Positions 4,393-35,782 of a stretch of DNA of 55,124 nucleotides are shown piece by piece. Position 1 is the first letter of the stretch, and every line of letters starts with the position of its first letter. The notes under the pieces were generated by a model. The model worked only from the letters and a program-made list of their open reading frames with translations. It did no database searches and had not been told where the DNA came from. The DNA is from a virus (taxonomy: Duplodnaviria > Caudoviricetes). A program made the translations under genes and the position numbers. The DNA lies in IMG/VR virus record IMGVR_UViG_3300021138_000034, positions 1 through 55,124 of that record; one strand, 5' to 3'.

Positions 4393-4914
4393 TTACTTGA
4401 TTTTGATTACCTTTGGCTTAAGTTCCTCAGGAAGTTCGCGCTTAACCTTGATGGTCAAAAGACCGTCTTTAAGATCAGCTGATTTTACTTCCATGAACTC
4501 TCCGAGCACGAACTGCTGGGACCAGGAGCGTTCGGCAATTCCTTGATGGATTACCACGTCCTTAGTCTTTTCGGCTTCGGTAATTGACTTGACCGTAAGC
4601 ATGTCCTTCTCTACCGTGATTTCGATATCTTCACGTGTGTAACCGGCCACAGCCAACTCTACAGTGTAGTTATTTTCATCTACGCGGATTAGGTTGTAAG
4701 GTGGGAACGATGTTGGCTTACGATTGATAGTTGCCCACTGACTCCAGCGCTCTACTTGGTCGTTAAACCCAATAAAGAATTGGTCACTAAAAAGCGACGG
4801 AAGGGTAATAACCGTTGAAGTTGGTGTGGTTTTTGGGCGTTCTTTTGGCCAAGGGTCGCGAATGCCCCATTGGTCTTTGCCGTGTGGATTTGGAATTGGA
4901 TAGCCTGATGCCAT
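4393..4914 (-). CDS. hsp20: Small heat-shock protein (Hsp20/IbpA family)
   Basis: FPPYNLI, ELAVAGY, HQGIAERS, ADLKDGLLTI motifs; AAGGAG RBS. Confidence 0.95.
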   Translation of the reverse strand: MASGYPIPNPHGKDQWGIRDPWPKERPKTTPTSTVITLPSLFSDQFFIGFNDQVERWSQWATINRKPTSFPPYNLIRVDENNYTVELAVAGYTREDIEITVEKDMLTVKSITEAEKTKDVVIHQGIAERSWSQQFVLGEFMEVKSADLKDGLLTIKVKRELPEELKPKVIKIK

Positions 4915-5815: not shown

Positions 5816-6274
5816 CTAGTTATAGTTTGGGTCTACTGCTGCTGGAGCAGCTGGAGTAGCATCTACAGCAGGAGCTGCAGCTGCTGGAGTAGAGTCTACA
5901 GCAGGAGCTGCAGTTGTTTGTGTTGGGATAGCTGAAGCTACAGTTTTGCTTCCATCTGCGTTGATAACAATTGCTTCGCCATTTTGACGAGCTTCTACAG
6001 CAAGGTCAGCTGCTGTTGTAGCCTTAGTGTCAATTGAAGCAAACGCTGCATTAATTTCGTCCATGCTGAGCTTGCCGTCATCCATAAAGCCGCGAGCAAG
6101 TTTTTCAACCACAGCTGCTACAGCTGTGATGCCGGCAACGCTCATTGCCTTAACTGTTGAGATGCCTGCTACAGCACCGGCACCAATAACGCCAAGAGCG
6201 CTTGCGGTAAAAGCTGCGACAATGCGCATAAGCACATTGAAGAAAAGCTTGTACGTGTTAATTAGTTTTATCAT
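5816..6274 (-). CDS. Putative holin
   Basis: Two N-terminal hydrophobic helices; directly upstream of endolysin; Ala/Pro-rich tail. Confidence 0.65.
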   Translation of the reverse strand: MIKLINTYKLFFNVLMRIVAAFTASALGVIGAGAVAGISTVKAMSVAGITAVAAVVEKLARGFMDDGKLSMDEINAAFASIDTKATTAADLAVEARQNGEAIVINADGSKTVASAIPTQTTAAPAVDSTPAAAAPAVDATPAAPAAVDPNYN

Positions 6275-15578: not shown

Positions 15579-15596
15579 GCCGGTAGCCTATCACCA

Positions 15597-15698
15597 TGAC
15601 ACTTCTATACTCATTTGCGTATAGAAGTGTCAATGTATAGAAAAGGTAACCTTTGGGTACCTTTGGGTACCTTTAGCTAATTCCAGCGCGACACGCCG
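15597..15698. promoter_or_regulatory. Divergent control region: perfect 14-bp inverted repeat, three 10-bp-phased direct repeats, CGACACGCCG box
   Basis: TGACACTTCTATAC-N8-GTATAGAAGTGTCA (15597-15632); ACCTTT at 15649/15659/15669; CGACACGCCG 15689-15698. Confidence 0.7.
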
Positions 15699-15757
15699 TC
15701 TGACCTGGGGTTATGCCTGCAAACAATGTGCGCTTACTTTGGTGTACTATTTCTGCC

Positions 15758-15925: not shown

Positions 15926-16062
15926 GCTACTGCTTAGCGCCGTATACCTTCAAAAAATTTTGATGCCCCCCGGCTGGGCTACTGTATAAGCCGTTATAGT
16001 CAAATCTTGCGCCGATTACCTGGAGGCCTTTGTAGATTTGTCGACATTTAACCGTGGGGGCT

Positions 16063-16078
16063 TCGAACATCTGTTCGA
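16063..16078. promoter_or_regulatory. LexA (SOS) box upstream of ardC
   Basis: TCGAAC-ATCT-GTTCGA matches the actinobacterial consensus TCGAAC-N4-GTTCGA. Confidence 0.8.
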
Positions 16079-16202
16079 GAGTGAGGGCGCTGGATTGTTA
16101 TCTAATCGTTATAAATCTACGCTCGCGCCTATTCGACACGGTGGGGGCGCTCGTGTACCTTGGACTTATAAGCGCAAAGGTTGCGCAAAGTTAGGGGTAA
16201 CT

Positions 16203-17075
16203 ATGAACCGCAGTGAAATCGAATCTCTAGTGACCAGCATGGTCACGGCACAATTACGCGAGGGGCGCGTCCCATGGCGTAAGACTTGGGCAAGCAAGGT
16301 CGGTCGACCAACCAACCTAGCCACCCGCCACCAGTACACGGGCGTTAATTGGCTCGTACTCTCTATGCAGGATGTCCCATCCCAACTATGGGTCACCTAT
16401 AAGCAAGCCCAAGCCCTAGGCGGTCAAGTCCGCAAGGGTAGCAAGGGTATCCACTGCATCAAGTACGGCACGATTGACACGGGCAAGGTCGACGCAAAGG
16501 GCAAGCCTATCCTCCGCCCATTCTTGAAGGCGTTCACCGTATTTAATGTCTCGCAGTGCGACGGGTTGACCATTCCCGCCGACTTGGTACCAGTCAAGCG
16601 CGAGACTGAGATATTGCCAGCGGTTGAGACTATGCTCGCCAACTATGCCAACCGCCCAACCGTTTACCATGGCGACTACGCAACCCCTCACTATAAGCCA
16701 ACCGAGGACACTATCCATATGCCCGAGGCTGGTCTATTCGATAGCGTCGAGGAGTACGCGACCGCGCTCGCTCATGAGATGACCCACTCGACTGGTCACC
16801 AGTCACGCGAGAATCGCGACATCATGAACCGATTCGGTTGCGAGGGATACGCCAAGGAGGAGCTAGTAGCCGAGATGGGTGCAGCCATGATGATGGTCGA
16901 GTATGGAATCGACATCGACCTCCCTAACACTGCCAGCTATCTCGCCAGCTGGTTGAAGGCTTTGAATGATGACCCAAGCCTCCTAGTTACCGCAAGTGCC
17001 AAGGCTCAGAAGGCAGTCGACCGAATGACTGGTAAGAAGGCAGTCGTCGAGGTCGAGGAGGAGGTGAGCGCCTAA
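16203..17075 (+). CDS. ardC: ArdC-family antirestriction protein (ssDNA-binding domain plus zincin-like domain)
   Basis: QLREGRVPWRKTW, YTGVN, WVTYKQAQALGGQVRKG, VFNVSQCDGL, HEMTHSTGH, YAKEELVAEMGA; start at ATG 16203 after AGGGG RBS. Confidence 0.95.
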   Translation: MNRSEIESLVTSMVTAQLREGRVPWRKTWASKVGRPTNLATRHQYTGVNWLVLSMQDVPSQLWVTYKQAQALGGQVRKGSKGIHCIKYGTIDTGKVDAKGKPILRPFLKAFTVFNVSQCDGLTIPADLVPVKRETEILPAVETMLANYANRPTVYHGDYATPHYKPTEDTIHMPEAGLFDSVEEYATALAHEMTHSTGHQSRENRDIMNRFGCEGYAKEELVAEMGAAMMMVEYGIDIDLPNTASYLASWLKALNDDPSLLVTASAKAQKAVDRMTGKKAVVEVEEEVSA

Positions 17076-17090
17076 GAGGTAAGGCGTCGA

Positions 17091-17110
17091 GCGGGGGAGC
17101 GATCCCCCGC
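17091..17110 (+). terminator. GC hairpin after ardC (no U-tract)
   Basis: GCGGGGGA-GCGA-TCCCCCGC. Confidence 0.6.
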
Positions 17111-17114
17111 GAGA

Positions 17115-17233
17115 TGTTTGTGTTGGTGCCCACCCTCCCAGCATTAAAGGAATGGAATGGAGAGATTATAACGAAATCGTTATAAAACTCTCGGCGTGTC
17201 GCTATTGGTGCTGTCGTAGGTAGGCGGTATTGT
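17115..17233 (+). repeat. Intergenic cassette element copy 1 (with promoter)
   Basis: TGTTTGTGTT, stem GGTGC/GCATT with loop CCACCCTCCCA, GGAAT, GAGAGA, TTATAACGAAATCGTTATAA, CGGCGTGTCG, TGTCGTAG-N8-TATTGT. Confidence 0.9.
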
Positions 17234-17274
17234 TCTCGGTGTTGGCAGATAGCCAGCAGATTAGGGGTAATCAA

Positions 17275-17448
17275 ATGAGCGTTAAAAAAGCGCGTAGGTC
17301 GTTAGTAGCAGGTATCTTTATGGGCGCACTAGTTGCGCTAGGTATAAATGCGGGAGTTGGTTTCTTGACTACTCATCATCAGGTCGAGTACAACTGCCAC
17401 CAAGCAGATGTCGGTTGGGAGTGCGATACTAAGTGGGTGCATAACTAA
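17275..17448 (+). CDS. Small single-TM protein (57 aa)
   Basis: AGGGG RBS, ATG 17275; hydrophobic helix. Confidence 0.7.
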   Translation: MSVKKARRSLVAGIFMGALVALGINAGVGFLTTHHQVEYNCHQADVGWECDTKWVHN

Positions 17449-17558
17449 TGGAGTGTCGTTTCTGCCAGTCCGACGGTGGTTCAGATTACTATGACGGTTT
17501 CTGCCACCTGTGTTACAAAATCATCCATCCGAGGAAAGGTAAAACAAATGTCAGTTGA
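17448..17558 (+). CDS. Tiny CxxC/CxxC Zn-binding protein (36 aa)
   Basis: MECRFCQ...FCHLCY; start overlaps upstream stop. Confidence 0.55.
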   Translation: MECRFCQSDGGSDYYDGFCHLCYKIIHPRKGKTNVS

Positions 17559-17763
17559 TACAACAAGCCCAGTCTATCCAGATGTCCATGTCCAGCTCGT
17601 TGGTCAGGACGGTAATGCGTTTGCGATCATGGGACGCGTCCAGTCAGCCCTAGAAGATGCGGGCGCAACTAAAGAAGAAATCGAGCAATATCTAAACGAA
17701 TCCATGTCAGGCGATTACGATAATCTTCTTCGTACCGCTGTGAAATGGGTGAGCGTTTCCTAA
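17548..17763 (+). CDS. Conserved phage protein (LVGQDGNAFAIMG...SGDYDNLL family)
   Basis: Recognisable motif; GAAAGG RBS. Confidence 0.85.
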   Translation: MSVDTTSPVYPDVHVQLVGQDGNAFAIMGRVQSALEDAGATKEEIEQYLNESMSGDYDNLLRTAVKWVSVS

Positions 17764-17786
17764 AGCTTAGTTACCCCTAAGACGGC

Positions 17787-17818
17787 AGCCCGGCGGGGCT
17801 TCTCTCCTGCCGGGCTTT
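17787..17818 (+). terminator. Intrinsic terminator-like hairpin
   Basis: AGCCCGGCGGGG...CCTGCCGGGCT-TT. Confidence 0.65.
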
Positions 17819-17838
17819 GCTGTGTCCGCGCGAGAAAA

Positions 17839-17958
17839 TGTTTGTGTTGGAAGCCCGCCCACCCAGCTTCAGGAATATCTAGGAGAGAGATTGTTATCAG
17901 ATTGTTATAAATGTTCCTCGGCGTGTCGGTTTGCCTAGTCGGTGGCATGGCATACCAT
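17839..17958 (+). repeat. Intergenic cassette element copy 2
   Basis: Stem GAAGC/GCTTC, loop CCGCCCACCCA; TTGTTATCAGATTGTTATAA; CGGCGTGTCG; AGTCGGTG-N8-TACCAT. Confidence 0.9.
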
Positions 17959-18002
17959 TGAGGCAGATAGCAGACGGCTATCAGTTCGAGAAAGGAACGA
18001 TT

Positions 18003-18569
18003 ATGGGTCTAGATATGTATCTAGAGGCTCGTAAGTTCGTTTCGGGATACGATTTTGCTCCCGAAGCGGATAAGCATTTGTTTAATCAGTTGAGCGAGAT
18101 TAGCCCCGCTGCTCCAAGCGTGGACTCTCCCTCTTTCCAATTAACCGTAAATATCGGTTATTGGCGCAAGGCGAACGCTATTCACGGTTGGTTTGTCCGT
18201 GAAATTGGCGACGGCGTTGATGAGTGCCAAGAAATGTATGTTCGCCGTGAGAAGTTGGCTGAACTGAAGTCTGCTCTCTTATTGGCTCTTGGTGAAAAGC
18301 CAAGCGTTGTTGCTCCTGCCTCTCAGGGTTATTCCATTAACGGCAACCCTGCCGAGGTTATCGCTGAGACTATGGTTCTAGAGGCTCACCGTGCTGAACT
18401 CAATGATGAGAGTGATACCGACCCTCTCCGTCCCGTCGGTGGTTTCTTTTTCGGTGGTACTGAGAAAGATGAGTGGTACTACCGTCAATTAGCGAACACT
18501 CTCGACATTATCGAGAAGGCGCTCGCTCTCCCAAGTACTTGGGACATTTACTATCAGGCGAGTTGGTAA
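18003..18569 (+). CDS. Conserved phage protein (MGLDMYL...YWRKANAIHGWF family)
   Basis: Signature motifs plus GFFFG...Y and YYQASW; GAGAAAGG RBS. Confidence 0.88.
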   Translation: MGLDMYLEARKFVSGYDFAPEADKHLFNQLSEISPAAPSVDSPSFQLTVNIGYWRKANAIHGWFVREIGDGVDECQEMYVRREKLAELKSALLLALGEKPSVVAPASQGYSINGNPAEVIAETMVLEAHRAELNDESDTDPLRPVGGFFFGGTEKDEWYYRQLANTLDIIEKALALPSTWDIYYQASW

Positions 18570-18853
18570 TGGCTAACTCTCAGGCTCGTGCGCTCGTCGA
18601 AAGGCGAGCGCAGGAGTGGCACAAGCGCTATTACTCTCAGTTGAACGGTGCGACCCTTGCCTTTGTTTGTATGACCGAGGATGAGTGGGGCAACCCTGAT
18701 TTCCCTACCTTCTTAGCGAAGTTCCCTGACGGTAGGACTATCCAGCTCGAAGTCTCTCGTGACCCTGAAGGAAATGGTGGCGGATTTATTTTCGGCATGG
18801 ATTTCCCTGACATGGCTGACTTTGATAAGGAAAGCGGGTTCGATAAGTTGTAA
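18569..18853 (+). CDS. Hypothetical protein (DPEGNGGGF motif)
   Basis: ATG overlaps upstream TAA. Confidence 0.75.
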   Translation: MANSQARALVERRAQEWHKRYYSQLNGATLAFVCMTEDEWGNPDFPTFLAKFPDGRTIQLEVSRDPEGNGGGFIFGMDFPDMADFDKESGFDKL

Positions 18854-18921
18854 GCGATTGGGGTTGGGAGTGATAACCAGTAACGGCGCGAGTAGCCTCG
18901 CGCGACCCCTCGCTCGCAAAA

Positions 18922-19038
18922 TGTTTGTGTTGAGCCCACCCACCCAGCTCAAATAGGAATGGATCGAGAGAGATAACGAAATTGTTATAGAAGTCGCTCG
19001 GCGTGTCGGCTGGAGATGTCGGTGCTGTCGAGTATTGT
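18922..19038 (+). repeat. Intergenic cassette element copy 3
   Basis: Stem TTGAGC/GCTCAA, loop CCACCCACCCA; ATAACGAAATTGTTAT; CGGCGTGTCG; TGTCGGTG-N8-TATTGT. Confidence 0.9.
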
Positions 19039-19094
19039 GTGGCTGTTGGTCAAACGACCAGCCCTGCTGACGGCAGGTTCAGAAAGGAAGTCCT

Positions 19095-19508
19095 ATGGGC
19101 ATAGCCCTTAAAGTTCCCAGAGCCAAAGTTTTGGTGGCTCTCAAAGACAGGCTCGTTCAGATTGAGTCTGACTACAAGCACCAAGCCAAGTATGAGGCTG
19201 ATTTCATCAAGGCTCATAAGAAGTGGCAACAAGATGTAATCAAGTTGGCTACAACCGAAGGCAAAATCCTTCCTACCGAGTGTTCGGTCTATGTCCGAGC
19301 ATACGGCACTAGCAACCAAATCAGCCTTCAGTATGAAGTGAAGAAGGAAGATTTGCCTGAAGAACCGACCCGTGATTGGGAGTCGATTAGCGACTACAAG
19401 TATCGCGAGATGCGTGATGAAATAAGCAACGCTATCCGCGTGATCGAGATGTGCGAAGATGAGGTAATCCCAGCCTCCACTCTCAAACCTTATAGCCACT
19501 ATCTATAA
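19095..19508 (+). CDS. Hypothetical protein (137 aa)
   Basis: ORF track; AGAAAGG RBS. Confidence 0.8.
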   Translation: MGIALKVPRAKVLVALKDRLVQIESDYKHQAKYEADFIKAHKKWQQDVIKLATTEGKILPTECSVYVRAYGTSNQISLQYEVKKEDLPEEPTRDWESISDYKYREMRDEISNAIRVIEMCEDEVIPASTLKPYSHYL

Positions 19509-19517
19509 GAGATAGGA

Positions 19518-19552
19518 GAAGCCCTCGCCCTTAGGAAAGGCGGGGGCTTTTT
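19518..19552 (+). terminator. Intrinsic terminator
   Basis: AAGCCCTCGCC...GGCGGGGGCTT-TTT. Confidence 0.8.
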
Positions 19553-19577
19553 CGCGCCCGCGCGGAACGCGCGGAAT

Positions 19578-19706
19578 TGTTTGTGTTGGAAAGCCCACCC
19601 ACCCTGCTTTCTGGAATACATAGGAGAGAGATAGGGATTTATAACAAAATCGTTATAAAAGACTTACGGCGTGTCGCTATTGCCTGTCGGTCTGGACGTG
19701 TAATGT
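19578..19706 (+). repeat. Intergenic cassette element copy 4
   Basis: Stem GAAAGC/GCTTTC, loop CCACCCACCCT; TTTATAACAAAATCGTTATAAA; CGGCGTGTCG; TGTCGGTC-N8-TAATGT. Confidence 0.9.
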
Positions 19707-19754
19707 CTGCTCTGTCGGGGAAACTCTTCGACTGTTCGAGAAAGGAACAAGCGG

Positions 19755-20249
19755 ATGTCTAAAAAAGACACGCTGAAAATAAAAGAGGCTTGCCTTCTTT
19801 TATTGAGCCTTGCCGATAAGTGGCAAGACGGAAAACCACTAGACCACGAGGAGATTGACCTTCTCGCGTGGGCTATCGCTGAAAATCTACAAGTGCGCGA
19901 TTACGCTATGAGCGCGCTACTTATGGACAAATTCGAGTCCGTAACTCTGACGATTGACTTCTATGACGAACTCGTTTCGCTCGTATCTGACGAATACAAG
20001 CACTCAATTCTCTCTATCCTTGCCATTCTTTGGTATGGCGCTGAGGATGACGAACTATCTGCCCGTAACCTGTCTATGGCTCTAGCCCTAAAGCCTGATT
20101 ATAAACTCGCGTTACTGGTTCAGAGAATCCACTCTGCTAACTGGCCTCACGAGGTTGTGCAAAATATGTTTAACGAACTCCACCCTACGGTGCGCGCCAG
20201 CGTGACCGAGGGCGGAGAGTATGCGGAAATGCTGGTTTCACAGGGCTAA
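19755..20249 (+). CDS. DUF4192-like helical protein
   Basis: LQVRD...W..G....AL...PDYKLA.L pattern of the actinobacterial DUF4192 C-terminus; GAGAAAGG RBS. Confidence 0.7.
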   Translation: MSKKDTLKIKEACLLLLSLADKWQDGKPLDHEEIDLLAWAIAENLQVRDYAMSALLMDKFESVTLTIDFYDELVSLVSDEYKHSILSILAILWYGAEDDELSARNLSMALALKPDYKLALLVQRIHSANWPHEVVQNMFNELHPTVRASVTEGGEYAEMLVSQG

Positions 20250-20264
20250 GTAGCCAGCGTTAGA

Positions 20265-20297
20265 GAAGCCCCCCAGCTCGTCACTGGGGGGTTTTTC
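20265..20297 (+). terminator. Intrinsic terminator
   Basis: AGCCCCCCAG-N7-CTGGGGGGTT-TTT. Confidence 0.8.
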
Positions 20298-20335
20298 ATT
20301 TGCCCTTGATCGCGCGAACGTGGGTCGCGCGAGAT

Positions 20336-20453
20336 TGTTTGTGTTGGTTGCCCGCCCACCCAGCAACTAGGAATTGAATGGAGAGACATAACGAAATTGT
20401 TATAAATGGGTACCGGCGTGTCGTGACCGGTCGCGGGCCGGATGTGGCAAGAT
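20336..20453 (+). repeat. Intergenic cassette element copy 5
   Basis: Stem TGGTTGC/GCAACTA, loop CCGCCCACCCA; ATAACGAAATTGTTAT; CGGCGTGTCG; weak -10 CAAGAT at the same spacing. Confidence 0.9.
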
Positions 20454-20478
20454 GTGTTTACTCGAGAAAGGAGTTACC

Positions 20479-20784
20479 GTGACTGGTACAGAAGGCATTC
20501 AGATAGTCGATGCGCAGCATCACTATGCAGTTCTTGAAGTTAAGAAGGAACTGAAGTTTAAATTCGATGGTCATGACTATGAGTGGACGGCATTCATTGG
20601 AGAACGTGGCTATGTCGAATATTGGAAGAGAGATGGCATATCAATTGAAGGTGGCGACACTGACGTTGAGTACCAGGTCCTGGACATGGACATGGGAGCG
20701 CTTTGGGAGGAAATCACTAATCGCAATTGCCAGCATAACCGGGCATGCGAATGTATGACATGTGGTGAGGTTCTCTATCACTGA
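20479..20784 (+). CDS. Hypothetical acidic protein with C-terminal Cys/His cluster
   Basis: GTG after GAGAAAGGAG. Confidence 0.75.
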   Translation: MTGTEGIQIVDAQHHYAVLEVKKELKFKFDGHDYEWTAFIGERGYVEYWKRDGISIEGGDTDVEYQVLDMDMGALWEEITNRNCQHNRACECMTCGEVLYH

Positions 20785-20807
20785 TGGGTCCGTCAGCCCT
20801 ATCATCG

Positions 20808-20833
20808 AGGCCCCCGGGAAACCGGGGGTCTTT
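20808..20833 (+). terminator. Intrinsic terminator
   Basis: AGGCCCCCGG-GAAA-CCGGGGGTCT-TT. Confidence 0.8.
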
Positions 20834-20846
20834 CGATTTTCGGAAT

Positions 20847-20974
20847 TGTTTGTGTTGGCCCTCCCACCCAGCATTTAAGGAATAGGAATAGAGAGAGATA
20901 CCGGCTTTATAACGAAATTGTTATAAACCATGGCCGGCGTGTCGCGATTGATTGTCCGTGGCCTCGTGTAAGTT
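20847..20974 (+). repeat. Intergenic cassette element copy 6
   Basis: Loop CCTCCCACCCA; TTTATAACGAAATTGTTATAAA; CGGCGTGTCG; TGTCCGTG-N8-TAAGTT. Confidence 0.9.
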
Positions 20975-21012
20975 GTGCCTTGCCGGAAAGGTTCCGCGCA
21001 AGAAAGGTAAAC

Positions 21013-21228
21013 ATGTCTAAAGACGAAGACATAAAGACGGAAGAGGTGACGTACCGGTTCATTACCGGCACGTGGTATTCCATCACCATTCCTAAAGAGA
21101 GAGAGGGGCAACCCGGCTACTCTCCTGAAGAGATATACAGCGCTTACTTTAATGAGGGCGCGCCTGATGACGTTAAGGTCTCAGAGGATGAAGTGGACCA
21201 TGTCTGGGAGGATGATTTAAATGCCTAG
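21013..21228 (+). CDS. Small acidic protein
   Basis: AGAAAGG RBS, ATG 21013. Confidence 0.75.
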   Translation: MSKDEDIKTEEVTYRFITGTWYSITIPKEREGQPGYSPEEIYSAYFNEGAPDDVKVSEDEVDHVWEDDLNA

Positions 21229-21430
21229 ATTCGACGTTAAGATGGTCATCGAATTCTCCGGTGAGCTCGAAGCTGATACAGCTGCCGAAGCTGAAGAAAA
21301 GGCCTGGACCTCCTGGGGTGACACGGCTGCTGCTGATATTACTTACGACGGTGTCTATTCAATTGAGGTAGACGAGATTGAAGAAGACGAAGAGGAAGAA
21401 GAGGACGATGAAGATTCAGACAAAAGCTAG
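21221..21430 (+). CDS. Small very acidic protein
   Basis: EADTAAEAEEKA motif, poly-E/D tail. Confidence 0.8.
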   Translation: MPRFDVKMVIEFSGELEADTAAEAEEKAWTSWGDTAAADITYDGVYSIEVDEIEEDEEEEEDDEDSDKS

Positions 21431-21453
21431 ATGCGTCGAATGCTCCCGCGTTT

Positions 21454-21678
21454 TTGACCTCCTTGATGAGACAGATGCTGCAGAATGGGCATACGGTCAT
21501 GACTGTGAAAGCTAAGACAGTGAGTGAGGCTCCCGGCAAGGGGGCCTCACGCCATGAGCACTATTGGATCTGTCAAGACATTCCCGGTTACTACAGCTGC
21601 AAATGCGGATTACAGAGATACTGGGATCGAAACAGGAGGCAGTACGTACTGTTCCTTGAAGACAATAGCGCCTCGTAA
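21454..21678 (+). CDS. Small His/Cys protein (HEH.W.C...C.CG)
   Basis: ORF track; start uncertain. Confidence 0.55.
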   Translation: MTSLMRQMLQNGHTVMTVKAKTVSEAPGKGASRHEHYWICQDIPGYYSCKCGLQRYWDRNRRQYVLFLEDNSAS

Positions 21679-21694
21679 GGGGCGCTATTTTTTT
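21664..21694 (+). terminator. Intrinsic terminator
   Basis: AATAGCGCCTC-GTAA-GGGGCGCTATT-TTTTT. Confidence 0.85.
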
Positions 21695-21721
21695 ATTGGA
21701 GTTTGCCTACACCCACCAAAA

Positions 21722-21862
21722 GTTTGTGTTGAAGCCCTCCCACCCAGCTTCTTATGGAATATATATAAGAGAGACGATATCGAACACGTGTTCGCCGAAC
21801 GTTTGTTCGAGAGACACGCCGGTGGCCCGGGTAGTTGACTCTGCAGCTGCCGGTGGTAAGTT
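21722..21862 (+). repeat. Intergenic cassette element copy 7 (variant with tandem SOS boxes and sigma-A promoter)
   Basis: Stem GAAGC/GCTTC, loop CCTCCCACCCA; palindrome replaced by CGAAC-N4-GTTCG x2; inverted GACACGCCG; TTGACT-N16-TAAGTT. Confidence 0.85.
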
Positions 21863-21903
21863 ACTTCTTGGCGGGACGGCCGCCACGTCGAACGTTTGTT
21901 CGA
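21780..21903. promoter_or_regulatory. Three LexA (SOS) boxes
   Basis: TCGAACACGTGTTCGC 21780-21795, CCGAACGTTTGTTCGA 21795-21810, TCGAACGTTTGTTCGA 21888-21903. Confidence 0.85.
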
Positions 21904-21922
21904 TGAGAGAGAAAGAGAAACA

Positions 21923-22456
21923 ATGACTACACAATTGAGAGAGATGAGAGAGATAGAGGTAGGCAATAGCTGCAGCTGCACCTACTGCCCTAACTGTTCT
22001 CTAGGTTCATCCGGCAATGAAGTATGCGATGAATGCCAACAACCGGTTCAGTACTCCAATGAATGCTTCGACTGCCAACCGTTTGACTGGGCCGAGGAAG
22101 AATTCGATGCTTGGGTCGATCGAGTCGGAGCTAAGCGCCTGCGTATTGATGGCCGTGCCATGGGTTGGCAGCGCCGATCCGGATACGCATACTGCGATCC
22201 AACCTGGAAGAGTTTCCTGGACCGGGTTACCTTCAATGGTGACTGGACCCTTAAGCTCAAGTTCGATGGCGATAGCTTCACCTTCAACCGGTATGGCCAC
22301 GATGAGCCCACTGGAGCTCACTTCGAAGTCTCTGTACACTTCTTCCTCCGGGACACTATGACCTTGGATCAAGCTGTCGAACACGAGATAGTCGACGAGT
22401 ATGGATGCCATATCAGCTGTGGCGAGTACTTCTATGATTGCGAGTGCAGCTCATGA
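21923..22456 (+). CDS. Cys-rich acidic protein (MGWQRRSG / HDEPTG motifs)
   Basis: ORF track; ATG 21923; several CxxC pairs. Confidence 0.8.
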   Translation: MTTQLREMREIEVGNSCSCTYCPNCSLGSSGNEVCDECQQPVQYSNECFDCQPFDWAEEEFDAWVDRVGAKRLRIDGRAMGWQRRSGYAYCDPTWKSFLDRVTFNGDWTLKLKFDGDSFTFNRYGHDEPTGAHFEVSVHFFLRDTMTLDQAVEHEIVDEYGCHISCGEYFYDCECSS

Positions 22457-22575
22457 GCGCTGGAGAGGCCTTACTCAGAGATCCCATCAATACCCGGCTT
22501 GAATGTAAGCTTTGCGGGCGCCTAGTAACCGGCGCTCGGGAAGCTATCGAGCATGAAGAGACTCATACTGCTTGA
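22453..22575 (+). CDS. 40-aa protein with classical C2H2 zinc-finger spacing
   Basis: CKLC-x12-HEETH; ATGA overlap with upstream gene. Confidence 0.65.
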   Translation: MSAGEALLRDPINTRLECKLCGRLVTGAREAIEHEETHTA

Positions 22576-22600
22576 CAAGCATCCTGATTAGTATTAATGT
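22572..22600 (+). promoter_or_regulatory. Consensus sigma-A promoter driving a non-coding region
   Basis: TTGACA-N17-TAATGT. Confidence 0.75.
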
Positions 22601-22604
22601 CTGT

Positions 22605-22701
22605 ACCGCTGGAGCGTCTTAACCTTTCTCAGCTCCAGCGGTCAGAGGCAGTAACCGTCATTACCGCCTCCGGTCTGGCAGCGAGACACCTTGCTCGCTG
22701 C
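22605..22701 (+). ncRNA. Candidate three-hairpin small RNA with anti-Shine-Dalgarno loop
   Basis: ACCGCTGGAGC/GCTCCAGCGGT around GTCTTAACCTTTCTCA; GAGGCAGTAA/TTACCGCCTC; GCAGCGAG/CTCGCTGC; immediately downstream of a consensus promoter. Confidence 0.6.
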
Positions 22702-22706
22702 AAGAT

Positions 22707-22783
22707 TGTTTGTGTTGACCCTCCCACCCCTTATCCCTTCGGGATAGGGTGATGGAGAGAGAGAAAGTCAAGGCGACACGCCG
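22707..22783 (+). repeat. Intergenic cassette element copy 8 (upstream module, degenerate)
   Basis: TGTTTGTGTTG, CCTCCCACCCC, GGAGAGAGAGA, inverted CGACACGCCG. Confidence 0.8.
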
Positions 22784-23009
22784 GAAGAGGAGGCAGCAGG
22801 TTCACGATCACTAAGTGATAGCAGTCACAGAGTGACTGGCAGGCTCTAAGAGCCAGTCAGTTAGGCTACTGCTCAGATAGTGAGACGGTGAGTCGGCTGT
22901 ACCCCCAGATTTACAGGACCTCCGGTCCAACTCCTATCTGATAACTCCGTGGAGAGAGATAGGAGAGAGAGAGACACTCTCAGCTATCCTCCTGGAATTG
23001 TCGACATTT

Positions 23010-23025
23010 TGTTCCACGTGAAACA
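23010..23025. promoter_or_regulatory. parS centromere site
   Basis: TGTTCCACGTGAAACA matches the parS consensus TGTTNCACGTGAAACA. Confidence 0.8.
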
Positions 23026-23094
23026 TTTATAACGAAATTGTTATCAAACCCCACCGGCGTGTCGTGAATAAATGTCGGTGCCTACTGGTTAAAT
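23026..23094 (+). repeat. Downstream (promoter) module of the cassette element
   Basis: TTTATAACGAAATTGTTAT; CGGCGTGTCG; TGTCGGTG-N8-TTAAAT. Confidence 0.85.
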
Positions 23095-23140
23095 GCTCTC
23101 ATGGCAACTAGGCCATAACACAGACGAGAAAGGTCTGGCG

Positions 23141-23467
23141 ATGAGCACAATTAACTATCACAAGGAAAAGTCCGAAGCTGCTGAAGCTAAGGTGAATGCT
23201 GCATGGATCAAGCTCCAAGAGTACTTCCGGGACAAGGGTGGCCTCACTGAGGAGCTAATCAAGATTTGGGTGGAAGGCACCATGGAGTCCCAGTGGCAGG
23301 GATGGCATGACTATGGCCTGATTCAGGCTAAGGAGTCTGCTGGCTGGTCCCGTCGTGACTGCCTAATCTGTGACGAGACTACTGAGCATGACTCTAATAA
23401 CCTATGCACTGTATGTCATTCATGCTCAAATTGTAAGGCGCCGGTTGGTAAGGGGGCATCGGCATGA
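23141..23467 (+). CDS. Hypothetical protein with C-terminal Zn-binding Cys cluster
   Basis: GAGAAAGG RBS, ATG 23141; three CxxC. Confidence 0.75.
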   Translation: MSTINYHKEKSEAAEAKVNAAWIKLQEYFRDKGGLTEELIKIWVEGTMESQWQGWHDYGLIQAKESAGWSRRDCLICDETTEHDSNNLCTVCHSCSNCKAPVGKGASA

Positions 23468-23658
23468 GCGTCTCACTCTATATACGGTCATGGAACCAAC
23501 AGAGCCATCTACACGCCACCGGTTGTGGGTGCAAGATTACTGACCGCTATGAGCATGTACAGGATTTCCCTACCTATGACGATTCCGTCAAGGTTTGGGA
23601 GGTAAATAACGAGCTAGGAACTATCCATCACGTATGCCTAGAGGAGGCAAAGCGATGA
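23464..23658 (+). CDS. Small His/Cys protein (HLHA.GC)
   Basis: ATGA overlaps. Confidence 0.7.
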   Translation: MSVSLYIRSWNQQSHLHATGCGCKITDRYEHVQDFPTYDDSVKVWEVNNELGTIHHVCLEEAKR

Positions 23659-23840
23659 ACGAAGAGGAGATTATCTTGGATTGGGAATATGACTATGAAG
23701 GCACCGGGATTCCGGCACCTGAAGACCGTGTTGGATTCGACTGGCATGTGAAGGTCCCTGAAGAGAATGTAGGTAATGATTGGGGACCGATCATGGCAGG
23801 AGTAGTAAAGCGCCGTTCGGCTGAGGGAGGCTCCAAGTGA
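23655..23840 (+). CDS. Small hypothetical protein
   Basis: GGAGG RBS, ATGA overlap. Confidence 0.7.
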   Translation: MNEEEIILDWEYDYEGTGIPAPEDRVGFDWHVKVPEENVGNDWGPIMAGVVKRRSAEGGSK

Positions 23841-23968
23841 AAGACCCTGAGTGGATGAGTGGCGACACGCCGTACTTCTGTGATGATTGCGGAATGCGCC
23901 ATGATGAAGAAGAATGTGCACCGGAAGAGGACCCTGACCGTCTACATGACGAGATGATGGAGGAATGA
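23837..23968 (+). CDS. Tiny acidic protein (C..CG..H...C, DPDRLHDE)
   Basis: GTGA overlap after GGAGG; manual translation. Confidence 0.6.
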   Translation: MKDPEWMSGDTPYFCDDCGMRHDEEECAPEEDPDRLHDEMMEE

Positions 23969-24195
23969 TGAAACTGAGTACCAAAGCAGGAGATATATAT
24001 GCTGAGTACGGCACCGATGATGAGGGACAGCCGTATGTCACTCTTTCGCTGGTGCCTGCCGGTCAAGAGAAGTATCGAGTCGACATGGACCTATTCGAGA
24101 AACAAGAGCTCGACGAGTTGATCCTGATTCTTCAAGATATCTCTGACCGAGTGCGTAAACAGCAGAATGCGTTGAAGGCGATTCCAAATGAGTGA
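23965..24195 (+). CDS. Small hypothetical protein
   Basis: ORF track; overlaps neighbours. Confidence 0.7.
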   Translation: MMKLSTKAGDIYAEYGTDDEGQPYVTLSLVPAGQEKYRVDMDLFEKQELDELILILQDISDRVRKQQNALKAIPNE

Positions 24196-24394
24196 CTCAC
24201 GTCGACTATCCCCTAATCGCGACCTTCGCAACCTTATAGAGTTGGCGCAAGCTCAAGGCTGGGTTGTTGAGCGCCGTAACAACAACCATCTCAAATGGAC
24301 TTCGCCTACCGGTTATGTAGTTTGGTCTGCATCCACGCCTAGCGACCGCAGAGCTCTACGCAACATTGCAAGGTATCTCAAGATAAAGGTGTAA
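24188..24394 (+). CDS. HicA-like toxin (dsRBD-like mRNA interferase family of actinophages)
   Basis: LI..A..QGW.V.R....HLKW..P.G.V...STPSD.RA..N pattern. Confidence 0.7.
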   Translation: MSDSRRLSPNRDLRNLIELAQAQGWVVERRNNNHLKWTSPTGYVVWSASTPSDRRALRNIARYLKIKV

Positions 24395-24447
24395 TACCCA
24401 TATGGGCGCGTAATGCTAAGATTGCATCCCCTACCAAAGGAGAAGAA

Positions 24448-24723
24448 ATGGAAGTCGCATTTAATCCTGAAATCCAGGACGATAACAAAGTTCGCAAGTG
24501 GCAAGTTGTGATCCACAAAGAAGATGGCAAAGGCACCGCATATGAAGCTGTCTACATGGTTCACTCCGAGTCCGGCGTTCTAACCGCTCTAGGCTGTCGT
24601 GCATTTACTTCTGTGATTCCAGCAAAGCGCTGGTTGTCATCCGTGATTGGTCACGATGTCAAGTACACAGCAAGTGCTGACCGCAAGAAGCTAATGGGGA
24701 TGACTGAGACCAAGGAAGCATAA
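24448..24723 (+). CDS. Hypothetical protein (91 aa)
   Basis: AAGGAG RBS. Confidence 0.75.
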   Translation: MEVAFNPEIQDDNKVRKWQVVIHKEDGKGTAYEAVYMVHSESGVLTALGCRAFTSVIPAKRWLSSVIGHDVKYTASADRKKLMGMTETKEA

Positions 24724-24848
24724 TGGGATTCACAGACCCTATCGTTCCCTCACCTAATTGGGAGCCAACAGATAATCGTCCGGGGCGCTCGCCTTATGAG
24801 GATGAAGAAGATGAAGAGTTCATCGAAACGGAAGAAGAGGAGGAATAA
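24723..24848 (+). CDS. Tiny acidic protein (41 aa)
   Basis: MGFTDPIVPSPNW...EDEEDEEFIETEEEEE. Confidence 0.6.
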   Translation: MGFTDPIVPSPNWEPTDNRPGRSPYEDEEDEEFIETEEEEE

Positions 24849-24850
24849 TA

Positions 24851-25033
24851 ATGGGCCAAGACATTGACCAGCCCGACCAACATATCTACGAACAAGATGG
24901 TGTTTACTATCTAGTTGATATTTGGCCTAACGGTGCAGTGCAGCTCAAGATCAAAGAAGGCGGACTGCAAGGCATATGGACAGCTGCATTGCAGGAGCTA
25001 ACTACAGAGCAGTATTACGCAGGTCTCAAGTGA
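24851..25033 (+). CDS. Small hypothetical protein
   Basis: GAGGAGG RBS. Confidence 0.7.
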   Translation: MGQDIDQPDQHIYEQDGVYYLVDIWPNGAVQLKIKEGGLQGIWTAALQELTTEQYYAGLK

Positions 25034-25245
25034 GCGAAGCAGATTACGACGCATACGCTAACAACGATGACTTTACTATTGTGCAGTCTCCTATGGACTA
25101 TAAGAAAATGCACATTGAAACCTTGGACCGACTGGTTGACCTTGCCGTTGCTCAGTACTCGAAGGACATTGAACTACTAAACCTAATCCGTACAGCTCGT
25201 GACTACGCCCTTTATCTTGAAGATAACCGGCGCATGATCGTATAA
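25030..25245 (+). CDS. Small hypothetical protein
   Basis: GTGA overlap start. Confidence 0.65.
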   Translation: MSEADYDAYANNDDFTIVQSPMDYKKMHIETLDRLVDLAVAQYSKDIELLNLIRTARDYALYLEDNRRMIV

Positions 25246-25256
25246 GAAAGGAAATC

Positions 25257-25496
25257 ATGTCAGATCAAAACATTGAGGATGCAAACGTAGTCTCAGCACC
25301 TGAAGTCAAGCACACCACCATGGTGTACATGATTGATGGCAAGAGCTTCGAAACTAGCATTCCTGCTCAAAGCTTGGTACAACACATTGCGTATAACAAC
25401 CCACGTGTTGTATCGCTCAACCGCCCAACCGGTGGCGATGTTCATCTTGTAGCTGAAAACATTAACTACATTGAGGATGTCATCGAAGAGCAGTAA
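25257..25496 (+). CDS. Small hypothetical protein
   Basis: AGAAAGG RBS. Confidence 0.75.
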   Translation: MSDQNIEDANVVSAPEVKHTTMVYMIDGKSFETSIPAQSLVQHIAYNNPRVVSLNRPTGGDVHLVAENINYIEDVIEEQ

Positions 25497-25689: not shown

Positions 25690-27732
25690 TCATTTAACGT
25701 CCCTAATCATTTTTACTTCGCAAGCATCTGTGGTGCAGTAAGCCTCACCGATGGCGTCCATCGCTAGACCTTCGTACACTCCACTTAGATCAATTGGAAA
25801 TAGCTTCATTGTGTAATCTTCATACTGTTTTGCTGTGATCTCTGAGTATGGCATTTGCGGGTAGGTCCCGTTATCCATCGGCAAGAAGGACACGGTCTTG
25901 AGCTGCCCGTCGAACATATGCAAAACTTTACCAATATCTGTTTTCTCTGTTTCTGGATTAAATGATACGGTCACAGATACCGAGTTGTCAGACCAATAGC
26001 GTTGAGCTGTGGCAGCTAGCGCTACCTTTTCGTAGATGGATACTTCCTTCTCCGAACGACGGCCACCTCCCTTGATTGGGAAGAACACGACTGAGGTTGT
26101 CTCAGGCGATTCAGCTGCCGGCTCGACTGTATATCCTGCCATCTTGAATAAAGGCAATACTGGGTCGCTGTTACCAAATCGAACAGCGCGTAGGAAGTAC
26201 TGTCCACCTGGCATCCAGTGAACTCCTGGCGATTCGCCAGCGAGGATACTTACAGTTCCGGATGGTTTGATGGTTGTTGTCTTGATTGATTCGCGGATGC
26301 CAAGCCATTCAGAATACGATTTATCATACGACTGAATGATGGAGTATCCCTTATCCATCCACTCACGTAAGGTTGGTAGTCCATGAATGTCAGCAAAGTT
26401 GGCAACGCCCGACATAGAGGTTCCGATGCGTCGATTACGCTGCATGATGGCGTTAGTCTCTTCCCAGTGAGTGGGGAGGAGTGTGACAGTCTTCGCATAT
26501 AGGTAGGCGAACTTAAGAGTACGGAGGTAATCCTCAAGATTGTCGTGGCGATTCAAATAGGTTTCTACTAACGTACAGCACTCGTACGATTCGAGTGATT
26601 GCTCTGCACATGGGTTATATCCTACAGCTCGCCAGTCTTTGTTATTGATTGGATCAGCAAGGCGACCATACTGCCGAGTGACGTCCATCCAGATAACGCC
26701 CGGCTCACCGTTGTCAGCGATTCGTTCGATGATTGGAGTTAGGTTAGAGCCTACGTTTACCTCTACTGAGTTGTTAGACATCCAACCCCAGCCAGAGTCT
26801 TTACCGGTTGGGTCATACTTGTTACGCTTTGGATTCTTCTTGAAGTCCTTGAGGTTGAGGAATTCCTCATCGTCTAACCGGCCCATGAGTAGCTCAGCTG
26901 AGCGACGCACGTTTCCGCTCACAACACAAACTCCGATGAGGTTGCCGATGTCAGCGATATCTGTACGGGTTAGCTGTCCGCTTTCTCGTCCTTTGAAGAT
27001 TCGGGTGATGTGCTTGTGTAATTTGATAAGTGGTTCAGGGCCTGCAGCAGTTCCTCCGAAAGTCCGAATAGGTTCTCCTGCTTTTCGAATTTCAGAGTAG
27101 TCGAACGTTGGTAGCGCTTGGTCAGGCTTGAGGTAAGCGTTAAGAAGCTGTGCAGTGGATTCGACCCAGCCCTCTCGGGTGTCGGGAATGATTGTGGCAT
27201 CGGTACTCTCTTTCGGCTTATAAATTGTAAAGCCTTTATCAGCACCTTTATCATCGAACCCAACGCCTACTCCCAGCATGGAAGCTTCCATGAGGAATGC
27301 AAAAGGCTTTGCTGGGTCGTTCTTGTTCATACTTCCGGTGGATACGAAAGCGCAATTCTGCAAGGCAGCGGAGTTGCGCTGCTCATTAACTAGTGGGGTA
27401 CCCATAACCCATAGCCCACGTCCCGGTGGAGTCCACTTTAGATTGAACAGGCGATCGTAAGCTTCCTTGGCAGAAGCTTGAGCTTTGGCGTCTGACCATG
27501 GGAGGCGGTTAGACTTGGCGTGGTCCTTCTGTAGGGAGTACATGCCGTTGATTACTCGCTCGCAGACTTCGGCCCAAGTTTCCTTGGTGCCGTCTGGCTT
27601 CAGCCGACTGTACGTTCGGAGGAAAATAATCTCTCCCATACTGTTGCCAGCTGCATCACGGTTTCCGAAAGGCGCCTTCTTGGTCTTGTAGCCAGATACG
27701 AACTCATCGGCCAAACGGAATGTGATTGCCAT
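25690..27732 (-). CDS. nrdJ: Class II (B12-dependent, RTPR-type) ribonucleotide reductase
   Basis: RTYSR, PPGRGLW, NCAF, GNVRRSA, NPCAEQ, TTIKPSGTVS, C-terminal CTTDAC. Confidence 0.95.
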   Translation of the reverse strand: MAITFRLADEFVSGYKTKKAPFGNRDAAGNSMGEIIFLRTYSRLKPDGTKETWAEVCERVINGMYSLQKDHAKSNRLPWSDAKAQASAKEAYDRLFNLKWTPPGRGLWVMGTPLVNEQRNSAALQNCAFVSTGSMNKNDPAKPFAFLMEASMLGVGVGFDDKGADKGFTIYKPKESTDATIIPDTREGWVESTAQLLNAYLKPDQALPTFDYSEIRKAGEPIRTFGGTAAGPEPLIKLHKHITRIFKGRESGQLTRTDIADIGNLIGVCVVSGNVRRSAELLMGRLDDEEFLNLKDFKKNPKRNKYDPTGKDSGWGWMSNNSVEVNVGSNLTPIIERIADNGEPGVIWMDVTRQYGRLADPINNKDWRAVGYNPCAEQSLESYECCTLVETYLNRHDNLEDYLRTLKFAYLYAKTVTLLPTHWEETNAIMQRNRRIGTSMSGVANFADIHGLPTLREWMDKGYSIIQSYDKSYSEWLGIRESIKTTTIKPSGTVSILAGESPGVHWMPGGQYFLRAVRFGNSDPVLPLFKMAGYTVEPAAESPETTSVVFFPIKGGGRRSEKEVSIYEKVALAATAQRYWSDNSVSVTVSFNPETEKTDIGKVLHMFDGQLKTVSFLPMDNGTYPQMPYSEITAKQYEDYTMKLFPIDLSGVYEGLAMDAIGEAYCTTDACEVKMIRDVK

Positions 27733-35436: not shown

Positions 35437-35709
35437 TTACAGGACAAACACGTGAAGGACAATGGCGGAAATGTCCCCGTCATGGCTCTCTACGCTGGCA
35501 AATCCGGGGATAACAGCAATTCTAAGACCTCGTGGGGCCACATAGCCTGAGGCAATAGCCACGGCCTTGATTGCCTGGTTAACCGCTCCGGCTCCAATGG
35601 CTCTTAGGTCTACCTCACGGGACTCATAAATAGCATGAGCAATAGCGGAGGCTACAGACTGAGGGTTTGAGCTAGCAGATACGCGTAACGGTTCATTCTT
35701 TTCTGACAT
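35437..35709 (-). CDS. spoVS: Stage V sporulation protein S (SpoVS) family protein
   Basis: LRVSASSNPQSVASAIA...AIGAGAVNQAIKAVAIA.GYVAP.G signature; ATG 35709 after AAGGA. Confidence 0.92.
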   Translation of the reverse strand: MSEKNEPLRVSASSNPQSVASAIAHAIYESREVDLRAIGAGAVNQAIKAVAIASGYVAPRGLRIAVIPGFASVESHDGDISAIVLHVFVL

Positions 35710-35782
35710 TTGGTGTTCCTTTGGTTTACGAGTAGTGGTTCTCCCTCGTAAAAGTATGCAGGCAAACGCCAAATAAAGGGGG

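Follow-up and report, generated by a model that had tools for sequence, protein, structure and literature searches.

Within the window, by which we mean the entire 55,124-nt fragment of virus record IMGVR_UViG_3300021138_000034 (CheckV completeness 57%), eight copies of a composite intergenic element lie within 6 kb of one another, and none is found elsewhere. The element measures about 200–245 nt from stop codon to start codon and consists of two modules, denoted A and B, that separate small groups of genes. The array is located in a plus-strand island (about 15.7–25.5 kb) flanked by two minus-strand blocks, which code for RecA, DnaB, primase, PolA, an SNF2 helicase, a class II ribonucleotide reductase (RNR), Dam, a CHAP lysin and 7 tRNAs. 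The nearest relatives of PolA are found in Streptomyces phages (BRock, Alone3; 38% identity), and further proteins of the window match DUF4192, DUF5679 and DUF7296, families that we take to be typical of actinobacteria and hence to fit an actinophage. The source of the window is a virulent freshwater actinophage of about 96 kb, whose early-gene region carries the elements.

The constituent motifs of the element are strongly enriched. The 11-mer TGTTTGTGTTG, counted with at most one mismatch, has 10 matches in the window (1.41 expected; none of 100 shuffles reaches 10). Eight of these are found on the plus strand of the array, at 17115, 17839, 18922, 19578, 20336, 20847, 21721 (AGTTTGTGTTG, with A as first base) and 22707; the other two, at 5915 inside a coding region and at 26922 on the minus strand, look like chance matches. 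The C-rich motif CCNCCCWCCC has eight matches in the window (0.47 expected), all of them 1–7 nt 3′ of these 11-mers. The palindrome ATAAC-N6-GTTAT has 7 matches (1.33 expected), 6 of which are in the array (17168, 18973, 19641, 20388, 20909 and 23029), and the box CGGCGTGTCG occurs seven times on the plus strand of the array (17192, 17919, 18999, 19667, 20414, 20935 and 23055). The distance between this box and a −10-like hexamer is 24 nt in 6 of the 7 modules and 26 nt in copy 1; the hexamer conforms to TAnnnT in five cases and reads CAAGAT in copy 5 and TTAAAT in the module at 23055. An alignment of the seven complete intergenic regions (MAFFT) contains 41 invariant columns. A covariance model trained on 53 copies, of which the window contributed six, finds all eight window copies, including the two outside the training set (E 8e-6 and 6e-5), with a next-best hit no better than E 0.018. 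Motif counts and covariance model thus both recover the eight-copy modular element that had been proposed in an earlier sequence-only reading of this stretch.

Three parts make up module A: the 11-mer, often located behind a terminator hairpin; a weak hairpin that covaries and carries a C-rich loop; and the tract GAGAGA. Module B appears from its sequence to combine an operator with a promoter, and differs between sublineages; in the window it comprises a TTATAAC-N6-GTTATAA operator, CGGCGTGTCG and TGTCGGTG boxes, a TAnnnT −10 hexamer, and a conserved 5′ untranslated region with a Shine-Dalgarno sequence of type GAGAAAGGA ahead of the start codons. All copies are on the plus strand. Copy 1 (17076–17274) contains a terminator-like hairpin (about 17092–17111), the 11-mer (17115–17125) and the C-rich loop (17129–17139, stem GGTGC/GCATT), followed in its 3′ part by GGAGAGA (17159–17165), the palindrome (17166–17185) and CGGCGTGTCG (17192–17201), with TATTGT 26 nt further on. 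Copy 3 (18854–19094) consists of the 11-mer (18922–18932), a stem GAGC/GCTC, the palindrome (18973–18989), CGGCGTGTCG (18999–19008) and TATTGT. Copy 4 (19509–19754) contains a canonical terminator, a hairpin (19558–19574), the 11-mer (19578–19588) and a stem GAAAGC/GCTTTC; its 3′ part carries the palindrome (19639–19658) and CGGCGTGTCG (19667–19676), followed by TAATGT. Copy 5 (20250–20478) likewise has a terminator and a hairpin (20310–20332), then the 11-mer (20336–20346), a stem GTTGC/GCAAC, the palindrome (20388–20405) and CGGCGTGTCG (20414–20423), and copy 6 (20785–21012) a terminator (20807–20832), the 11-mer (20847–20857), the palindrome (20907–20926), CGGCGTGTCG (20935–20944) and TAAGTT.

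The remaining three copies depart from this scheme, such that the single consensus originally given for all copies describes most of them only. In copy 2 (17764–18002; 11-mer 17839–17849, stem GAAGC/GCTTC around CCCGCCCACCC, GGAGAGAGA at 17882–17890) the palindrome is replaced by a direct-repeat operator variant, TTGTTAT..TTGTTAT, located before CGGCGTGTCG (17919–17928), with TACCAT 24 nt after the box. Copy 7 (21679–21922; terminator 21664–21689, AGTTTGTGTTG at 21721–21731, stem GAAGC/GCTTC) lacks a plus-strand CGGCGTGTCG and carries a distinct palindrome, TCGAACAnnTGTTCGA, with operators of this kind at 21780, 21795 and 21888. Copy 8 (22576–23140) is split: the 11-mer (22707–22717) belongs to a module A that extends to 22767 and in which the hairpin CCCCTTATCCC-TTCG-GGGATAGGG replaces the C-rich-loop stem, and module B (23026–23094) is separated from it by an insert of about 260 nt that contains several GTGA/TCAC palindromes and a parS-like TGTTCCACGTGAAACA (23008–23023). 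The palindrome of copy 7 is also found at 16063, within the promoter/operator region of the first gene unit (16030–16202, plus strand), which contains TCGAACATCTGTTCGA (16063–16078) and GATTGTTATCTAATCGTTATAAAT and no module A. Since this region has operators without module A, and since the two modules of copy 8 are about 260 nt apart, we take module A to close the upstream unit and module B to open the one that follows.

The units delimited in this way, all on the plus strand, are small and self-contained as had been described, with a range of 1–4 genes rather than 1–3. Unit 0 (16203–17075) is a gene for a 290-aa ArdC-like anti-restriction protein (Pfam ArdcN, 6.5e-26; MPTase-PolyVal, 5.7e-34; PHROG 7245 'anti-restriction protein', 2.5e-72). 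Unit 1 consists of three small open reading frames (ORFs; 17275–17448, 17448–17558 and 17548–17763), the third of which belongs to PHROG 1933 (function not annotated). According to the ORF calls, unit 2 (18003–18853) groups a 188-aa and a 94-aa ORF; environmental homologues of the 188-aa protein number more than 5000, with no functional name among the matches listed (n=120). Unit 3 (19095–19508) is a 137-aa ORF with no family match in Pfam, PHROG or NCBIfam, unit 4 (19755–20249) a 164-aa DUF4192-like ORF (Pfam 2.2e-7), and unit 5 (20479–20784) a called ORF of 101 aa. Unit 6 comprises four small ORFs, assigned from ORF calls and sequence reading (21013–21228, 21221–21430, 21408–21515 and 21499–21678), and unit 7 (21923–22575) a 177-aa Cys-rich ORF together with a 40-aa ORF, again as called. 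Downstream of the array follows a long operon of small ORFs without internal elements (23141–25496). The cargo had been expected to consist of genes for anti-defence and host takeover. The first gene fits this expectation; among the 26 plus-strand ORFs of the early island that were scanned (15 in repeat-delimited units), no functional annotation was obtained beyond the ArdC-like and DUF4192 proteins, and NCBIfam gave nothing useful for 20 proteins. Within the downstream operon, a 68-aa ORF (24188–24391) matches phrog_2089 (function not annotated; 1.6e-11) and, weakly, the 'toxin'-labelled phrog_353 (1.2e-4).

The context of module A resembles that of an intrinsic terminator. In the window, a hairpin is found upstream of the 11-mer in all 8 copies, and not only in the first seven for which it had been noted; it ends at most 8 nt before the 11-mer in five copies and about 20–25 nt before it in three. 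A terminator scan returns four hairpins whose tails extend into the 11-mer. Across the relatives described below, 59 of 136 unique copies have a perfect GC-rich hairpin that ends no more than 8 nt ahead of the 11-mer, compared with 216 of 2000 random positions. Judged by this context, the 11-mer seems to behave as a conserved U/G-rich terminator tail, though not in all copies. One further structured feature ends in the same way: a candidate small RNA (22572–22718) is preceded by a near-consensus promoter, TTGACA-17-TAATGT (22572–22600), that overlaps the stop codon of the preceding ORF, and its structured part (22604–22718, 115 nt) forms three predicted hairpins (minimum free energy, MFE, −54.1 kcal/mol; z −6.28), the last of which runs into the 11-mer of copy 8 and ends as hairpin plus UUGUUUGUGUUG.

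The second constituent of module A, the C-rich-loop hairpin, is indicated by covariation. Where the arm has a length of 4 nt or more, 45 of 55 unique copies pair over at least 4 bp, compared with 28% in permutations (maximum 44% in 500), and the stems are built from 39 distinct arm pairs. For the three inner pairs in 53 sequences (alignment A2), 73% of the cells are paired, compared with 54.8% in shuffles (reached in 0 of 500), the covariation score is 0.473 (0.160 in shuffles), and slid registers give 21–43% pairing. RNAalifold predicts no pairs on the MAFFT alignment of 53 copies; because variable arm lengths put the alignment gaps out of register, the stated 3-pair helix was counted directly and subjected to a permutation test. 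The third constituent, the GAGAG tract, is present in 108 of 135 unique copies and located 47–73 nt 3′ of the 11-mer in all but one. A search of Rfam 15 gave best hits of 17.8–23.7 bits (gathering scores 39–111), none of them on module A.

Module A is not restricted to this phage. The sequence-only reading had anticipated homologues in other phage genomes, and a search of IMG/VR for the 11-mer plus C-rich pattern finds 113 stretches on 50 records, compared with none for a reversed control pattern; the module recurs in 49 other IMG/VR contigs of the same lineage of about 96-kb actinophages. Thirteen of the 50 records are at least 90% complete, of which twelve have a length of 88–98 kb and six have terminal repeats. 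The single hit on a 294-kb record (G040, a jumbo phage) is probably due to chance and was discounted. The pattern is nearly missing from bacteria and archaea, with a total of 5 stretches in 185,579 genomes. Comparison of up to 20 kb around each array, over 51 stretches, gave 159 copies. Complete genomes carry their copies in a single region, as in G004 with 6 copies within 2.6–8.3 kb of its 96 kb; overall, about 60–200 nt of sequence is repeated 5–9 times in direct orientation within about 6–10 kb. The part conserved across the lineage is module A, namely the 11-mer, the C-rich motif, one or two small hairpins and the GAGAG tract.

A second architecture is found in 15 stretches (e.g. L127, L129, L165, L123, L139 and L152), where the 11-mer occurs as inverted pairs, TGTTTGTGTTGGG - variable sequence - CCCAACACAAACA. 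The resulting hairpins (n=49, 43 unique) enclose 30–130 nt of variable, internally paired sequence, have a total length of about 60–140 nt, and are near-perfect, with a mean folding energy of about −42 kcal/mol and 1383 Watson-Crick pairs compared with 44 G·U pairs; asymmetry of folding energy between their strands is confounded by G-rich complements. Internal sequences of different copies are unrelated. The hairpins occupy the same site between units, after a terminator hairpin with T-run and before an operator/promoter module. Because both architectures place a second structured block behind the first terminator, we infer that this block may act as an insulating back-up terminator.

No close relative of the window was found. 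Its best IMG/VR relatives reach only about 70% identity, and no more than that in the RNR gene. The array has no match among INPHARED phages (blastn), the DUF4192 protein none among cultured relatives (tblastn), and a metagenome scan with the latter gave a single weak locus (46% identity over 28 residues). The motif is found twice on a 7.3-kb contig (L171, L172) binned into a metagenome-assembled genome of Candidatus Nanopelagicaceae, possibly a mis-binned phage contig, and one homologue of the 188-aa cassette protein is labelled Nanopelagicaceae. The host is probably a member of the Nanopelagicaceae (acI-type freshwater Actinobacteria), for which these are weak hints, or another actinobacterium. 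Elsewhere in the window, a SpoVS-family protein (35440–35772; Pfam 3.3e-27) and an Hsp20/alpha-crystallin protein (4396–4914, minus strand; 1.8e-17) seem unusual phage cargo.

Module B varies among the relatives, where no fewer than four types of operator accompany module A. Behind module A in the 159 copies, the TTATAAC palindrome is found 8 times, GTTAY direct repeats 24 times, TGTGA-N6-TCACA 54 times (carriers include L146, L143, L162, L144, L169 and L124) and, in other relatives, the DnaA-box-like TGTGGATAA 13 times; CGGCGTGTCG is present in 27 of the 159. The motif TGTGA-N6-TCACA matches what we take to be the CRP/GlxR-type consensus, and the phages may borrow global regulators of their hosts or encode look-alikes. 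A sigma-factor region is present in only 1 of the 12 near-complete relatives; a phage sigma factor as reader of the promoters was therefore rejected, and the host polymerase presumably reads them. Two further sites were observed near the arrays. A palindrome that we call parS-like, on our assumption of the parS consensus, occurs as TGTTCCACGTGAAACA in the window and as GTTTCACGTGAAAC in nine relatives (L124, L129, L132, L138, L145, L150, L158, L159 and L161); in 8 of 10 stretches it is located 123–303 nt past the last element of the array, just ahead of a long downstream operon. The region 15590–15700 of the window is a divergent control region that serves the leftward operon, with three tandem GGTACCTTTG-type repeats (about 15645–15676), an inverted CGGCGTGTCG (15689–15698, minus strand), and a 13-bp perfect inverted repeat, GACACTTCTATAC / GTATAGAAGTGTC, that overlaps a TTGACA-type promoter on the minus strand.

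The order of genes between elements differs among the relatives. ORFs from all arrays were clustered, and their order was compared in 41 stretches after 10 had been dropped, namely near-duplicates of at least 90% identity (L154, L161, L158, L150, L151, L168, L170, L163 and L141) and the jumbo-phage hit (L160). Families 9, 12 (DUF4192), 14, 26, 36, 37 (ArdC-like), 42, 31/51 and 11/21 vary in order and grouping among relatives. For example, with '/' denoting an element, the window reads 37 / 131 / 9 26 / - / 12 ..., G004 reads 36 151 / 12 / 14 9 154 / 26 155 / 42 ..., G018 reads 36 / 9 26 32 / 12 / 14 / 42 31 51 ..., and G037 reads 32 89 / 37 / 14 / 9 / 12 .... That gene order would not be fixed had been predicted from the single sequence, and neither a fixed order nor a lack of homologues was found. 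In counts that are phylogenetically non-independent, adjacency of two genes is kept in 69 of 209 comparisons (33%) with an intervening element, compared with 117 of 194 (60%) without. Individual transitions can be located in L162 and L144, where homology blocks exchange partners at elements and end at positions +56, −52 and −10 counted from the 11-mers. Exact breakpoints are not resolvable, because the informative genomes are only about 70% identical; at this distance, similarity is restricted to coding sequence. The direct repeats probably supply homology for the shuffling. Copies are also more alike within a genome (module A score 0.199) than across genomes sharing the flanking gene (0.153/0.159), which is consistent with homogenisation, with genes swapped into a resident framework, or with co-evolution with a regulator.

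Among known systems, the promoter-early stem-loop elements (PeSLs) of T4-type phages are a close counterpart. PeSLs combine a stem-loop terminator, an early promoter and a Shine-Dalgarno sequence in a short intergenic motif (Arbiol et al. 2010, PMC2839356); many copies flank small non-core early genes, and homologous recombination between the repeats has been proposed (PMC2839356; Comeau et al. 2014, PMC4122927). Mini-circles and breakpoints between near-identical phages are shown for PeSLs (PMC2839356, PMC4122927). The array described here shares, at the level of sequence, the composite of terminator hairpin, promoter and Shine-Dalgarno motif, the crowding of copies in a region of small, mostly unannotated early genes that are flanked singly or in small groups, and the differences between relatives in content and order of the flanked genes. 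The element differs from PeSLs in host phylum and phage lineage and has no sequence relationship to them. It is longer, with its two modules separable, and adds a lineage-wide module (11-mer, covarying C-rich-loop hairpin and GA tract) as well as an operator palindrome; its promoter does not follow the sigma-70 consensus, whereas PeSLs, of T4-type myoviruses, carry sigma-70 −35 and −10 boxes with an AT-rich upstream region. The PeSL analogy drawn in the sequence-only reading accordingly fits at the level of architecture (PMC2839356), and by this comparison the element is an analogue of PeSLs and not a homologue.

Two other types of arrangement can be compared. The nearest precedents among actinophages are repeats of mycobacteriophages such as the stoperators of Cluster A, the start-associated sequences of Cluster K and the 17-bp dyad repeat of Cluster O (PMC4351075). 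These are dozens of short conserved intergenic sites, some dyadic and presumed to bind regulators, a type that the palindromes of module B fit; they are single sites of 13–17 bp distributed genome-wide, whereas the present element is a multi-part structure of 130–200 nt with a covarying stem, confined to one array. Morons resemble the units in being bracketed by their own promoter- and terminator-like signals and in carrying accessory genes such as the ArdC-like gene, but are single insertions with unrelated signals, whereas here copies of one element form a tandem array. A literature search turned up no description of the element, which is not proof of its absence; the earlier reader likewise knew of none.

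Taken together, we consider it fairly probable that the elements are PeSL-like regulatory punctuation that heads autonomous, co-regulated early units, and whose repeats also provide homology for the exchange of units. On this interpretation, the GC-rich hairpin of module A, with TGTTTGTGTTG as its tail, would act as an intrinsic terminator that closes the upstream unit, and the C-rich-loop hairpin (11-nt loop) together with the GAGAGA tract may serve as a back-up insulator. Operator, boxes and TAnnnT −10 of module B, read by the host RNA polymerase, would then start the downstream unit, such that each unit of 1–4 genes forms an autonomous, co-regulated transcription unit. Recombination between the direct repeats would delete, duplicate or re-join units, as has been proposed for the PeSLs of T4-type phages, and the occurrence of the same genes in different order among relatives is proposed to arise because the repeats offer homology.

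Several observations weigh against this interpretation. With respect to regulation, a generic sigma-70 scan calls none of the promoters, which like the terminators are predicted from sequence, and their −35 regions are weak. A perfect hairpin within 8 nt upstream is missing in 77 of 136 unique copies, such that the terminator tail is not universal. The fold of module A is no stabler than that of shuffled sequences in 7 of the 8 window copies (z −0.17 to +2.19; copy 8 alone is significant, −2.42), a C-loop stem is absent from 73 of 128 unique copies, in which the 3′ C's pair with a downstream GGG instead, and the pairs leave the strand of the structure undecided (14 G·T vs 9 A·C). With respect to exchange, BLAST blocks do not point to the breakpoints inside the repeat that had been expected: overall, their ends fall within elements in 13.9% (left) and 7.1% (right) of cases, compared with 14.9% of random positions, that is, without enrichment. 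The only close pairs of genomes are collinear, and the closest, L162 and L163 (94% identical), have the same cassette order with small indels outside the elements. Gene 9 has gene 26, 14 or 12 as its direct neighbour, depending on the genome, and no element intervenes. RecA had been named as the agent of gain, loss and reordering; the recA gene is present, and nothing ties RecA to the elements.

These block ends, the position of the L162/L163 indels and the change of neighbours without an intervening element favour purely regulatory repeats (terminators, operators and promoters of early genes), kept alike by a shared regulator and the host polymerase, with the shuffling being ordinary mosaicism by illegitimate recombination that has no relation to them. 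The genome-specific module B, as expected under co-evolution with a regulator, points in the same direction. We nevertheless regard this explanation as rather unlikely. An element is found between the genes in 140 of 217 broken adjacencies, compared with 69 of 186 conserved ones; module A is kept across sublineages with different promoters and operators, such that a shared operator does not explain its conservation; and in any RecA-encoding phage, direct repeats of 60–200 nt serve as substrates for recombination.

It is also possible, though unlikely in our view, that module A is a cis-acting RNA, be it a nut-like boxA-boxB, a processing or stability signal, or a C-loop seed for pairing with G-rich or Shine-Dalgarno sequences; it would owe its transcription to read-through or to a promoter far upstream, and would control expression across unit boundaries. 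The covarying stems with their invariant loop fit such a function, as does the anti-Shine-Dalgarno-like CCUCC of the loop, to which the GGAGG/GGTGG run found before GAGAG in some relatives is complementary. The variable spacing of 47–73 nt between 11-mer and GAGAGA favours a folded nucleic acid over a double-stranded DNA site of fixed geometry, and a box followed by a hairpin with conserved loop is reminiscent of nut sites, in architecture only. However, module A is located after the terminator hairpins and before the promoter-like module and is perhaps hardly transcribed, no N-like protein was identified, Rfam contains no match, and the MFE z-scores are not significant. The complementary G-run, with which the loop could form a pseudoknot, is present in only 21 of 129 copies, its association with the loop variant is weak, and a G-rich target was not found on the sense strand of the early region. 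In sister genomes, moreover, the 11-mer is paired inside a long hairpin, unlike a single-stranded recognition site.

A bolder version of the boundary function, to which we assign a similarly low likelihood, is that module A is a lineage-wide boundary signal independent of promoter and operator, a folded nucleic acid that insulates units and marks the points of exchange. The signal would consist of TGTTTGTGTTG, the covarying hairpin with its anti-Shine-Dalgarno-like C-rich loop and the GA tract, and its equivalent in sister phages would be the 11-mer closing a hairpin of about 85 nt. If true, early genes would have a 'cassette grammar' that needs no recombinase, and module A would represent an undescribed class of structured element, beyond a promoter/terminator repeat.

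A mobile or site-specific element, either attC-like integron sites or an element similar to a miniature inverted-repeat transposable element with TGTTTGTGTTGGG as inverted ends, is very improbable: the array of small genes with variable cassette order, and the folded sites with conserved ends and variable paired cores, clearest in the 49 long hairpins of the relatives with their 11-mer inverted termini, are formally attC-like, but a tyrosine recombinase (PF00589) is found in none of the 12 near-complete relatives (controls positive in 14 of 14) nor in the window, which led us to reject the integron reading, the units each come with a promoter-like module whereas integron cassettes are promoterless, GTT/AAC are arranged in inverted fashion compared with what we take to be the attC core-site motif, internal sequences differ between copies, such that these are not copies of one transposon, and the pattern is nearly absent from bacterial and archaeal genomes.

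Returning to PeSL-like punctuation as the preferred interpretation, its meaning lies in the organization of phage early regions, which gather anti-defence and host-takeover genes and for which detailed knowledge of gene exchange is limited to the T4-type phages. The same logic would have arisen a second time, independently, in a lineage that is uncultured and abounds in freshwater. It would also be richer than the T4 case, since operator/promoter modules that can be interchanged, and some of whose operators resemble sites of host global regulators, are joined to a structured module conserved across the lineage. The concept as such was already familiar from T4-type phages. New are the structured module shared by the lineage, the two architectures in which it occurs and its coupling to operator sets that can be interchanged. 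The 11-mer together with the C-rich motif provides a simple handle for finding the accessory-gene early arrays of these phages in metagenomes, and the elements constitute a defined set for testing the link between transcription insulation and gene shuffling.

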